From the NCBI RefSeq assembly GCF_054482595.1, contig NZ_CM137008.1: a stretch of 64,000 nt of DNA; one strand, given 5' to 3'. Position numbers: made by a program. Positions 36,001-42,000 of the stretch are shown piece by piece; the first letter of the stretch is position 1, and every line of letters begins with the position of its first letter.

Positions 36001-39000
36001 AATAATCGCGCATAGCCTGATGCAATAAATAGAGGTCGAAGTATTCTAGTCCCGATTTTTTTAATGATGCTTCAATACCTGCTGCTGCCGTATCCTGATT
36101 CAACATATCCTGCACCCACAATTTAGACGTTAAAAATAACTCTTCTCGGGTACATAAACCTTCGGATATAGCTTCACGAACGGCTTCACCGACGGCATCT
36201 TCATTACCGTATACCGCTGCAGTGTCGATGAGTCGATACCCCGTGCGGATAGCGTTCAACACTGACTGTTTGCACACGTTTTTATCGGTAACCTGAAAAA
36301 CACCAAATCCCATCATCGGCATTTTCAGATTGTTACTTAATACGGAAAATTCCACTGTCAGTCCCTCCATTAGGCATGAACAATGAGTCTACGTTAAAAC
36401 GTAACCTCAAATTAGTATGTGGATTTTGATATCACTTATGCAAAAAATTCATTAATAATGTAGGACTGAAACCTCTCTATTTTCGGGGCAACGAAGCAGA
36501 CGCTACCAGTGCTTTTGCCTTGGGCCTTGCTGTTTTTGATACACTTAGGGCCCAGGGCATAACGAAAATGTGCGATATGACAAAGAATTAACGGAGAATG
36601 TGATGATCAGGCAGAAGATTCTACAGCAGCTCCTGGAGTGGATTGAGTGCAATCTTGAGCACCCTATTTCAATCGAAGATATCGCACAGAAATCTGGCTA
36701 CAGCAGACGCAACATCCAGCTTCTGTTCCGAAATTTCATGCATGTGCCTTTGGGAGAATACATTCGCAAACGAAGGCTTTGTCGTGCCGCCATTCTTGTC
36801 CGGCTCACCGCGAAATCTATGCTTGATATTGCACTCTCTTTGCATTTTGATTCACAGCAATCATTCAGCCGCGAATTTAAAAAGTTATTCGGCTGCTCTC
36901 CCCGTGTATACCGCCACCGTGATTATTGGGATCTCGTAAATATCTTCCCTTCTTTTTTAATACGTCAACAGCAAAAGACGGAGTGTAGATTAGTCAACTT
37001 TCCTGAGACACCTATTTTTGGCAATTCATTTAAATATGATATTGAAGTGTCGAATAAATCACCGGATGAAGAAGTCAAACTGCGACGTCATCATTTAGCC
37101 AGATGTATGAATAATTTTAAGACGGATATCTATTTCGTCTCCACGTTTGAACCGTCAACAAAATCGGTCGATTTGCTCACGGTTGAAACTTTTGCTGGTA
37201 CGGTATGTGAATATGCTGACATGCCAAAAGAGTGGACAACGACCCGAGGACTTTATGCCTCTTTCCGTTATGAAGGAAACTGGGAAAATTATCCTGACTG
37301 GGTGCGTAACATCTATCTGATAGAGTTGCCTGCCAGGGGGTTAGCCAGAGTGAACGGCAGCGATATTGAGCGCTTTTATTACAATGAAGATTTCGTAGAA
37401 AAGGATGGCAATGATGTTGTTTGCGAAATTTTTATTCCCGTTCGTCCGATTTAGCTGTCGCTATGTCTAAATGAATTTATAACGAGACTACTGTCAGGAA
37501 ATTCAATAAATAATGGCGTTGAAGATGTCAACGCCATTATTGTTTATTAGAATGTTACTTTCATACTCTTAATATTATTTCATCGCCTCCTCGCCCGTTG
37601 CCGTATTGGCATCCACCGCGGTAATGGTCACCGTCACTGGCTTCATTTCGTACCCGCCATAGGTCAGGGCGTTAAATGTGAATGTATAGACACCAGGCTT
37701 GCTGGTACTAAATGTACGCGTGATTTTTCCGCTCACGAAATGGTCATTTTTCGACGGCAGGAACTGATAATCCTCCTCCGTCACCCCTTCCGGCGTCTGA
37801 ATGTCGACCCACATATTCCCGCCAACGGGGTTATTTGCCGACATCAGGGTCACCTCCAGCTTCGCAGTCGATTTCCCATCCGCCACCAGAGATTGCATAT
37901 CAGATGATGCGGTGAGCACCGCGTTTTTATCATCCGCGACGAATTTAGATTCGGCAGTTTTCGTTGATACCTGACCGTTGGTCTGACTCACTTGCGCCGT
38001 GAGTTTATATGTCGCCGCAACAGTAGTGGTGGCGGTGAAAATAGCCTGCCCTTGCTCATTCGTTGTCGCAGTGCCATTCGGTTCCAGGTTTAACGAAGCC
38101 GGGCTGGCAGTTAGCGTCACGTCGCTATCTTTCACCAAATTGTTATTGGCATCAGTCACCGTAACTTTATACGTTTGTTTGGCTTTGCCGTCCGCCAGCG
38201 CATAGTTGCCCATCACCTCAATACCGGAGACGGTTGCGGTAGCCTTATCGGCTACAAACGTTATAGTCTGCGTATCCGAAGGCTGGCTATTCCCTGCCGA
38301 TGCCGTGATCTCATACGTTCCGGCAGTCACTGAAACCACCTGCAACTCGGCTTTCCCCTCATCGTTGGCTTTCACCCAGACATTATCGCCTGTAAGCGGC
38401 TTGACACCCCGGGGCAGATTAAAGGTCACCAGGCTCCCTGGAACAGGGTTACCATTTTTATCCTCAACGGTCGCCGTCAGCGTAAAGGCATCTTTGCCGT
38501 TTGCCACTTTTTGAACGGCGGTGTCTACCTGCAGGTTTGCCTGACCGGTGCTGGCATCCGCGTTGAATTTCACCGTGACCGTCTTCTGAGCACCATTCAC
38601 CGAAGCGGAAATATTGTGTTCTCCCGCAACCGTTGACATCAGCTCAATGTCCACTTTCCCTGCCGCATTGGTTGTTACTGTATTCCCCGTCTTGCTGGTC
38701 ACACCCTGCGGTAAAGTCAGCGTAACTTCTTGCCCCTGCAACGGGTTACCATAGCTGTCCACGACGGTCAGGGTTATCTGGTTCGCAGACTGTCCATTAG
38801 CCAGTTGGTTATTAAACTTCACTGTCATATCACGAATCTCAGCCTTAGATGCGTCACCTGCAACATTCAGCACCAGTGGCTGAGCAACGGCATTTTGGCC
38901 GTTCACTCGCGGCATCACAGACAACTGACCCGCGGCAGATCCCAGCGTTAAGGTCGACACGTAGACCCCATTACCTTTCTCTGTCCAGTTTCCTGCTGAA

Positions 39001-42000
39001 GGACGCTCACTCCCCGTGCTGGCGGCACCGCTAAACACTGGTGCATCTGGCTTCAGCCCGGTGACCGGGTTCCCGTACGCATCCTTCACGGTGAAGGTGA
39101 GTTCCGTCGTCGTTTTGACGGTCGGAGCCTTATTGTCCGCAACAAGCGTAGAGTTCGCTGATGACATCTCCCCGGCGATGACCGTCAACTGCGCGGCTTC
39201 GGTGGCTGCTGGCTGGCCGTTGAAGAGCGGCATGACGCGAAGCTCGCCCGTCTTTCCGCCTGTAGTCAACGTAGCAACATAGGAACCGTCACCTTTTTCG
39301 GTCCAACTGGAAACGGTCGCCCCTTCAGAGGCGGTCCCCGTCAAACTTGCCGACAACGCAAGACCACTGATAGCGTTGCCATGCGCATCTTTCGCCACCA
39401 GCGTCACGGTTGTGCTTTCGCCGGCTTTTACGTGGTCTTCTGCGACAGAGACTTTCGACTGGTTTGAAGATAACGCATCAGCCACCACGGTTACTTTTGC
39501 CGCATTTGCTGCCGCATTCTGTCCATTTAGCTTCGGCATAACTTCTAATTCACCCGCCGTAGAGCCGAGAGTAATCTGCGCAGTCCACGTCCCATCACCA
39601 TTATTTGTCCAGCCCGATGCCGTAGAACCTTCAGCAGCGGCACCCGCTAATGACGGCGCTTCCGGCGTGAGGCTGGTCACAGGGTTGTCATAGGCATCTT
39701 TTACCGTCCAGATTGCCGTAACTGTACCCCCAACCACCGGTTTATCAGGATTCAGGGTGATGGACGAATGTGCTGCATCAAGCGGCCCGGCAACAAACTT
39801 CAGCGTTTGTTGTAATGTGCCCAGCTGATACTGCTCGCTGAAAGCACGCACAACAACGTTTCCGGCACGGGTCGAAGAAACCGTGGCGCTGTAAACGCCT
39901 GGTTTTATTTCCGAAATGGCACCAACGGTTACACCATTAGTGTCTTGCGGAACAAATCGCAAGCGGCTGGCTTCTCCCGTCACCGGATTACCCTCGGAGT
40001 CCACCGCAGTCAACGTCAACGTATAGGCTTGCTGACCATCAGCAACCACGTCACCTGACGGCTCGTTAGCGCTCAGGGTGGAGTTTGCCACATCCATCAT
40101 CGTGGCCCGCAGTTCTGCAGTGACGGTTTTGCTCATGCCATCAACGCTAACAGTAATCGTTGCCTCACCTGACTGCGTTCCGGTAGTAAAGACAGACTGA
40201 TACACCCCTGCTTCAGTTTCGGTGAACTCACCCAGTGTTGGCTTTGCCTGTGATTTAGTGGCCTTCAGGGAACGAGTCACAATATTTCCAGCCGGTTTGA
40301 AAGTTAGTTCAGTCTTGATCTGATCTTTCATGCCCGTGACTGGCTGGCCCTCGGCGTCGCGCAGAGACAGCACCAGCGGTTTTTGCTCATTACCGTTAGC
40401 AAGCATTTGAATACGGCTCTGACCGTCAAGCGTTAACGCCGTGCGATCGGCGCTCATACCTGCTCCGGTAATGACCACCTCTGTCTGCACGCGTTTTGAG
40501 GCATTGCCTTTGTTATCGTAGGCAACCGCAGAAATCGCATAATAATTGTTTTTACCTGGACGATAAGCCGGGAGCGTTACTTGCCACTGACTACCCTGAC
40601 CGGTAATTTTGCCACCTTCAGCCAGTAATGACGGCGCTTCCCACTGCACATTTTTCAGTCCGTGAGTTGCTTTGCTGACCACAAGCCCCAGGGAAAGTGT
40701 CTGACCGCCCTTACCTTCAATACGCTCAGGCAGAGCAATACGGATCACCTCAGATTTGCGGTACTCAAGAACGATGTTGTTATTACGCTCAACCAGGTCA
40801 TAGCGGCTGCCTGCCAGTACCCGACGCTCGCGAATGCTATCCGTATCGAGTTGTTTCGCCAAAGGTTCGCCAATTCGGTAGTTAACTTCCAGGCCAAAGC
40901 GAGTGTCATTCTCACCGCTCTTGCCCTGCTTATGCCCGGCGCTCAGTGTCAGAAGAGGCACTGGCGTATAGGTCACCTCGGCAGAAATCGCATGCGGGTC
41001 TTTCTGGCGCTTATCTTTACCAAACAGCCCGACTTCATCGCCATAATACTGTTCATACATCAGGCTTGCGCCAAGCTGCGGCCAGGCAGGTAAATAGCCC
41101 TCTGCGCGGATATCCCAACCATTCGCCGGGCGTTCCTGATAATCCTCAATATCCGGCGATTTTTTCCAGCCAGAAGCCCGAATATAACCATTGGCGCTCA
41201 GTTTCAAATAATCACGCCAGTATTCCGCACCAACACCAATGCGGGTATGACTACGGGATAAATCATGGTCGATAAAGGTGTTCACCCCCGCCATCCAGTC
41301 ATTTCCTGAAAAATGACGCCAGCCAAAACCAATATTTGACTGAGTACGATCGTCGGTACGATGTATTGCTCCCTGAGTGAACAACATATTTGTTGGCGTA
41401 TCATAAATCGGATAAAGCATTTCCAGCGAAGAATCCTTCAGCGAGAAATTTTTATCGACATTCAGTTTGACGCGCGCAGTACCGTATTTCCCGAGCCACT
41501 CCTGTATTTCCTGGTTAGCTTTAGCGGTGGCCATTCCGGTAATAAAGTTACGTGTCGCATCGCTATCTGGCTGACTGCTTAAAAATGTCCCGGCATTTGC
41601 GGCAAACGACGCGACATTTTTCTCCACGTTATTATCAGCAGTTACCGTAGTATTTCCCATGCTCAACCGTGGCTGAACCGCATGCTGCGCACGTGCCGCC
41701 ATTACTGGGGTAAAGGTGACAGCGAGTGGAAAAAGAACCTGAACAGAGATATTTGCCCACGCCACGCAGCGGGCCAGAACTGAATAACGAAATCGTGGTT
41801 GTTTATGACCTGTTTTATAACGTGACATTGAGATAATTTCCTGATGAACGAATTAACGAACATAGGCAGACACAAATAATGGCGTCTGCTTGTCAGAAAA
41901 ACCGGGGATTTCCCGGTTTCCTTTTCCGCAGAAAAGGAAATACCTTTATGTAAGAAAGTACACCGCCACCTAATATATCCAGTGCCTGTAGCCACTCATC

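Follow-up and report, generated by a model that had tools for sequence, protein, structure and literature searches.

Whether an adhesin gene that is known from Escherichia coli K-12 only as a pseudogene is complete in another strain, and what its completeness would mean, is the question raised by a locus in a stretch of 64,000 nucleotides from contig NZ_CM137008.1 (NCBI RefSeq assembly GCF_054482595.1), hereafter the window. The gene in question, located at 37575-41828, is almost certainly an intact allele of fdeC, a chromosomal E. coli gene formerly called eaeH whose product is a type Ve adhesin. It is coding-intact, orthologous to fdeC of other strains and in its canonical locus, it encodes a protein of complete architecture and it is preceded by a conserved AT-rich region. 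The finding is ordinary and already known in its essentials, as both the K-12 pseudogene and the presence of a full-length gene in most strains were published by Nesta et al. 2012 (PMC3324786).

The listing of open reading frames (ORFs) of the window includes one uninterrupted frame at these positions, with an ATG start and 1417 codons plus the stop codon. This is exactly the ORF proposed by an initial annotation made from the sequence alone, which gave no strand; it lies on the minus strand. Its translation contains no internal stop, so that the barrel and every immunoglobulin (Ig)-like repeat are read through as had been claimed. The other two minus-strand frames contain 82 and 102 stops, and the probability of 1417 stop-free codons arising by chance, computed from the base composition of the ORF, is about 5e-30. 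In the identical genome of XH990, the Prokaryotic Genome Annotation Pipeline (PGAP) of RefSeq puts the start and the stop of fdeC at the same positions (4254 bp). A megablast search of 5426 complete E. coli genomes was done with the gene and 500 bp on each side as query (5254 bp). Among the matches listed, at least 11 complete genomes are 100.0% identical to the query; these 11 come from unrelated sources, including human, duck, chicken, pig and indoor environment, and all of them carry the annotation 'fdeC: inverse autotransporter adhesin FdeC' at this locus. The gene and the parts of its product are as follows:

37575..41828, minus strand: fdeC (eaeH) coding sequence (ORF, XH990 annotation, identity to the 11 listed genomes)
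41688..41828, minus strand: putative extended signal peptide, residues 1-47 (inspection)
40758..41603, minus strand: inverse autotransporter (IAT) beta-barrel, or translocator, residues 76-357 (PF11924, alignment of 4E1T and 4E1S)
40431..40757, minus strand: first Ig-like domain, D00-like and adjoining the barrel, residues 358-466 (alignment of 6TQD)
37668..40403, minus strand: nine further Ig-like (Big_1/Invasin_D3) domains, residues 476-1387 (self-comparison by hidden Markov model, Pfam)
38805..40046, minus strand: region B, the crystallised protective-antigen fragment, residues 595-1008 (alignment of 4E9L)

The first 20 residues of the protein include six K/R and no D/E and precede a hydrophobic core at about residues 31-45 (from inspection and hydropathy only), and AXA-like sites are seen by inspection only at VMA44 and ARA47. 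Residues 1-47 thus look like a putative long (extended) Sec signal peptide. The Pfam domain IAT_beta (PF11924) matches residues 76-350 with 363 bits (cut-off 22.3, E 1.5e-108) over positions 3-279 of the 279 of its profile, and residues 113-357 can be aligned with two solved barrel structures, 4E1T of invasin and 4E1S of intimin. The barrel is of the 12-stranded type. The next segment, residues 358-466, aligns to the intimin chain 6TQD (E 1.1e-12) and is called D00-like here. With an N-terminal IAT barrel followed by an Ig-superfamily passenger, FdeC is a type Ve protein, i.e. an inverse autotransporter.

Pfam recognizes nine stretches of Invasin_D3 and five of Big_1 in this passenger. When the protein was compared with itself by blastp, no match with an E-value of 1e-3 or better pointed to internal repeats, which are too divergent for blastp; an iterative self-comparison by hidden Markov model, seeded on one repeat, was therefore used instead. 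It delineated nine Ig-like domains within residues 476-1387, with a period of about 100-105 aa (Ig1 to Ig9: 476-566, 595-668, 699-771, 800-873, 901-979, 1009-1081, 1108-1182, 1211-1284 and 1315-1387). Together with the domain at 358-466, the total is ten Ig-like domains, and the published count for FdeC is 10 Big domains (PMC4943183). Residues 595-1008 match the FdeC fragment of PDB entry 4E9L end to end (E 3.6e-248), this fragment being the region B defined in PMC3324786. Only 30 residues follow the last Ig-like domain, too short a stretch to accommodate the lectin tip that intimin and invasin have. Neither a LysM domain nor a C-type lectin domain was found in the protein by Pfam, and Nesta et al. 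2012 also concluded that FdeC has no C-type lectin domain (PMC3324786).

The assignment to fdeC is carried by sequence identity and by synteny. Over region B, the window protein is identical to the crystal construct of strain IHE3034 (4E9L) at 397 of 414 positions (17 mismatches, about 96%, E 1e-249), this comparison concerning the 414-residue construct and not the full-length protein; alignment to FdeC of an extraintestinal pathogenic E. coli (ExPEC) thus bears out the name given to the gene. The amino acid identity is 97.6% with the protein of O157:H7, 91.7% with that of E2348/69 and 92.9% with that of MRE162, and these divergent alleles are all intact coding sequences (1417, 1416 and 1418 aa, respectively). 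FdeC was reported to share more than 91% amino acid identity among strains and to have a prevalence of 99% in ExPEC (PMC3324786). The gene lies in the canonical ykg region, between rclABC and ykgR/ykgMO, and its neighbours are a ykgA-like gene encoding a helix-turn-helix protein and aldo/keto reductase genes; a cluster of regulators, reductases and hydrolases was described for fdeC in PMC3324786. The identity, the ykg locus and the ten Ig-like domains with neither LysM nor C-type lectin domain are those of an FdeC orthologue. The FdeC proteins of IHE3034 (ECOK1_0290; 4E9L), CFT073 and 536 are encoded by the same gene at the same locus, belong to the same length class (1416-1418 aa) and likewise consist of an IAT barrel and 10 Ig domains without lectin tip (PMC3324786). 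The O157:H7 protein has the same length of 1417 aa but differs from that of the window in Ig8 (87.5% identity) and in Ig9 with the tail (92.5%). Unlike in the window, the neighbouring aldo/keto reductase gene is truncated in the O157:H7 genome examined.

The initial annotation had stated that the K-12 counterpart is truncated and associated with an insertion sequence (IS), and this proved accurate. In MG1655, eaeH (b0297) is annotated as an 888-bp pseudogene abutting IS3A (315229-316483), which is followed by a ykgA pseudogene; the truncation is also described in PMC3324786. A blastn comparison of the window with MG1655 revealed homology at 36340-37257 (the ykgA remnant, which reaches the IS3A end) and at 40953-42379 (the eaeH remnant and its upstream region). 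Codon 292, which lies within the barrel, has its last base at position 40953 of the window, and the K-12 remnant encodes 292 FdeC residues, then TQQ from three IS-derived codons, then a stop, so that the passenger is gone entirely, together with some of the barrel. The segment of the window that has no counterpart in K-12 is:

37258..40952, no strand: segment absent from MG1655, which has IS3A in its place (last 3378 bp of fdeC, intergenic region and 3' end of the ykgA-like gene)

The first 292 codons of the K-12 gene encode a sequence about 99% identical to that of the window protein and the upstream region is 96.9% identical. Taken together, these alignments indicate that K-12 lost fdeC after codon 292 by an IS3A-associated deletion.

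This loss is not the usual state of the species. With the fdeC ORF alone as query, matches were obtained in 5078 of the 5426 complete genomes, and at least 80% of the gene was found in one place in 4585 of them (84.5%). A complete fdeC was previously reported in 67% of 126 genomes and in 83% of the strains of the E. coli reference (ECOR) collection (Goh et al. 2019, PMC6714894). Intact fdeC is thus the common wild-type state and K-12 the exception. Losses were also observed in other lineages: fdeC of CU532-9 (O4:H5) is broken by an IS1B insertion at about codon 161, O111:H8 strain 05-3004 carries a frameshifted and 3'-truncated fdeC remnant that adjoins IS1203, and in AST81 the gene is annotated as incomplete and in two parts, with 85% of the query matched. 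These losses are independent of that of K-12; IS-mediated decay seems to have struck this locus repeatedly.

The properties of FdeC known from other strains allow the following model for the product of this gene to be drawn. The protein would be exported by the Sec machinery, after which the barrel would be inserted in the outer membrane aided by the barrel assembly machinery and the translocation and assembly module (TAM). The C-terminal passenger would then be threaded out through the barrel and fold one domain after another to form a long rod. The assembly of FdeC was indeed found to be enhanced by TAM, and proteinase K treatment yields fragments of 50 kDa (barrel) and 100 kDa (passenger) (PMC4943183). 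Once exposed, the rod would bind epithelial cells and collagens I, III, V and VI and would promote cell-cell aggregation and biofilm formation. Fragment AB of FdeC was shown to bind epithelial cells and these four collagens, constitutive expression of FdeC leads to aggregation, a role in the colonisation of kidney and bladder was reported and immunisation with region B is protective (PMC3324786). Transcription of fdeC would normally be silent in culture and would be switched on by high temperature or by contact with host cells, under the control of H-NS. According to the title of work by Easton in 2014 and to the papers that cite it, FdeC of enterohaemorrhagic E. coli (EHEC) O157:H7 is reportedly under H-NS and temperature control. 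Passages of PMC6714894 and PMC11143625 cite this control of the EHEC protein.

The region upstream of fdeC in the window fits such a control:

41829..42393, minus strand: AT-rich intergenic region upstream of fdeC (565 bp, with a divergent aldo/keto reductase gene on its other side)

It has a GC content of 37.5%, compared to 49.0% for the window, with a minimum of 24% about 193-293 bp upstream of the ATG, and it is 98.9% identical to that of O157:H7. It is a candidate promoter region and a candidate target of H-NS. One sigma-70-like match is located at 42157..42130 on the minus strand, but such consensus matches do not exceed the number expected from shuffled sequences and no promoter is therefore claimed. 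A GGAA motif is present about 10 nt upstream of the ATG.

An intact coding sequence might nevertheless be cryptic in this strain, either permanently silenced or locally deregulated, and then confer no adhesin activity. Native FdeC is undetectable in ExPEC grown in vitro and is expressed only upon contact with host cells (PMC3324786), and in EHEC the protein was seen only from 39 °C upwards, as PMC11143625 relates. The AT-richness of the upstream region and the interruption by IS2 of one LysR gene of the fdeC cluster point the same way. Against this, about 85% of genomes keep fdeC at full length and the alleles examined contain no premature stop, which argues for selection on the protein. Moreover, the promoter region is nearly that of O157:H7, where expression is inducible, and there is no evidence linking the LysR gene to fdeC. 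That the gene is cryptic here seems unlikely to us, though its probability is not negligible, and the description of the adhesin as potentially functional by the initial annotation is a fair wording in the sense only that its coding sequence is intact.

The distal part of the passenger is where the window allele departs most from others:

37578..38816, minus strand: variable distal module, Ig6-Ig9 and tail, residues 1005-1417 (per-domain identity, counts at the DNA level)

Between the signal peptide and Ig5, most domains share 96-100% amino acid identity with those of E2348/69 and MRE162; with E2348/69, the D00-like domain (92.7%) and Ig3 (88.0%) are lower. The identity falls to 70-92% in Ig6-Ig9 when both strains are considered and is 70-88% per domain with the B2 strain E2348/69. 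Of the 5426 genomes, only 31 have a sequence that is at least 99% identical to the last 1242 bp of fdeC in the window, and in 2299 this identity is 80-90%. By these counts, the Ig6-Ig9 module of the window allele is a minority variant, and Heinz et al. had already illustrated that the distal domains vary among FdeC subtypes (PMC4943183, legend of Fig. 5A). This module might constitute an FdeC type of its own in receptor binding or antigenicity, maintained by diversifying selection or recombination, and, as a separate idea, IS2 in the LysR gene could alter the regulation of the fdeC cluster, but we regard both as quite improbable. The minority module and the strain-specific IS2 insertion are both mildly unusual, and neither has a known consequence.

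Some observations weigh against the reading of this gene as an intact fdeC with the adhesin role described in other strains. NCBIfam includes no FdeC-specific model, and the scores of all its equivalog models of IATs are below their cut-offs; the assignment rests on near-identity and synteny and not on a curated model. Ig6-Ig9 are up to 30% divergent from those of E2348/69 and MRE162, and what is known of binding, obtained with fragment AB of IHE3034 (barrel through Ig5), does not necessarily hold for the tip. In avian pathogenic E. coli, the expression of fdeC depends on temperature and its deletion raised adhesion and motility at 42 °C (PMC11143625), so that the role of FdeC as an adhesin depends on the context. 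Nothing contradicts the identification as FdeC, and the limits concern its function.

Long multi-repeat adhesin genes are, as is generally known, a trouble spot for short-read assembly, and the intactness of the ORF might therefore be an artefact of sequencing or assembly that masks a real frameshift in the Ig region. However, no DNA tandem repeats were found in the ORF by Tandem Repeats Finder, the nine Ig repeats share only 12-53% protein identity in pairwise comparisons (median 25%) and the sole homopolymer of six bases or more is one A6 run. The region is repetitive at the level of the fold only and not at the level of DNA, which makes repeat collapse or slippage an unrealistic source of a hidden frameshift. 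The 11 listed genomes that are 100% identical over the gene and its flanks are independent assemblies and can be viewed as the in silico equivalent of resequencing. Given this lack of DNA repeats and these eleven assemblies, a hidden frameshift is very unlikely, and we give almost no credence to an artefact.

That the gene encodes another inverse autotransporter (intimin/Eae, invasin, YeeJ, IatC, SinH or YchO) can be dismissed with near certainty: the NCBIfam models of IatC, Ilp, intimin, SinH and YchO do match the barrel region with strong E-values, but all scores lie far under the curated cut-offs, Pfam finds no LysM or C-type lectin domain, the locus is the ykg region and not the locus of enterocyte effacement (LEE), and the identity of about 96% to the FdeC crystal construct is at odds with it, so that this reading fails on the features tested.

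Each of these candidates was considered on its own. The NCBIfam scores are 635 for IatC (cut-off 2400), 305 for SinH (cut-off 999) and 285 for YchO (cut-off 508). Intimin (Eae) obtains 384.5 bits with the model intimin_all (cut-off 1400), and the window protein has neither its LysM nor its lectin domain and is not encoded in the LEE. No LEE genes are annotated in positions 1-51664, the part of the window whose annotation was examined, and the neighbours of fdeC are ykg, rcl and aldo/keto reductase genes. Invasin and YeeJ were rejected as identities together with intimin, IatC, SinH and YchO on the Pfam and NCBIfam profile evidence. The FdeC of the window has in common with intimin and invasin the type Ve secretion, a homologous barrel and an Ig-like rod. 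Intimin differs from FdeC in its four Big domains and lectin domain, compared to ten Ig domains in FdeC, as indicated in PMC7718877; in addition, it is encoded by a LEE gene that neighbours tir and cesT and has Tir as partner, whereas the fdeC gene is outside the LEE and its product lacks a Tir partner.

Over 1-45592 and 46924-51664, the window is essentially identical to the genome of XH990, with which it is collinear. Beside fdeC, it had been proposed to encode two autotransporters and the E. coli common pilus (ECP) as candidate adhesins, and all of these loci are open:

11011-14994, minus strand: ehaA autotransporter (open ORF)
25205-27502, plus strand: hyxB autotransporter (open ORF)
52482-59323, plus strand: ecp operon, ecpR/ecpA-E (open ORFs)

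The products of ehaA and hyxB both pass the cut-off of the barrel model TIGR01414. The segment 10885-15526, which carries ehaA between pdeL and betT, is absent from K-12; the open frame of ehaA reaches an upstream ATG at 15060, corresponding to 1349 aa, compared to the 1327 aa annotated by PGAP. An island at 21594-27575, between betA and ykgH, is also absent from K-12 and includes ipbA (hbiF/fimX) encoding a tyrosine invertase, hyxR encoding a LuxR-type regulator, hyxA and the hyxB autotransporter gene. At 3126-3484, between yahI and yahG, off-diagonal blast matches reveal about four tandem copies of about 92 bp (93-97% identical), which overlap a small gene annotated as 'hypothetical protein' (yahH in K-12).

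Downstream of fdeC lie the following features:

36603..37454, plus strand: ykgA-like AraC/Rob-family regulator gene, full-length and convergent with fdeC (annotated helix-turn-helix protein, 283 aa)
37509..37541, no strand: hairpin with a perfect 14-bp stem and T-rich tails on both strands, between the stop codons of the convergent fdeC and ykgA-like genes

The ykgA-like protein is Rob-like over residues 5-281 (E 2e-57), with a score under the equivalog cut-off, and in K-12 ykgA was truncated through the same IS3A event that cut eaeH. The hairpin is likely a bidirectional intrinsic terminator.

On the other side, fdeC adjoins a 7.6-kb cluster (42380-50011) that is absent from MG1655, where only the ykgP pseudogene remnant is left. 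It includes genes for two aldo/keto reductases, two LysR regulators, an alpha/beta hydrolase and an NADH-dependent flavin oxidoreductase. An IS2 element of 1331 bp (45593-46923) interrupts one LysR-family gene of this cluster, at about 200 bp from the 3' end of the gene. Its transposase ORF is located at 45604-46509 on the minus strand, the TnpB model of NCBIfam gives 709.7 bits (cut-off 597), and the ends, which were read directly, are flanked by a 5-bp target duplication, CAGCG (45588-45592 and 46924-46928). This insertion is absent from the otherwise identical XH990, and the exact junction between IS2 and the LysR gene was not found among complete RefSeq E. coli genomes. The best matches to the junction are 98.3% identical, in three pieces, and correspond to an IS3-family element in the same LysR gene, over a longer stretch of the record.

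Taken as a whole, K-12 lacks, within the limits of the 64-kb window, ehaA, the ipbA-hyx island, most of fdeC and the 7.6-kb cluster of reductases and regulators. The intact fdeC means that this strain retains the usual wild-type repertoire, a part of which is lost in K-12; apart from correct annotation, the finding has little import. FdeC is a broadly conserved adhesin of E. coli and a vaccine-candidate antigen. For surveys of vaccine coverage, it is useful to note that the protective region B of the allele described here shares about 96% identity with the vaccine construct, while the distal domains are variable.

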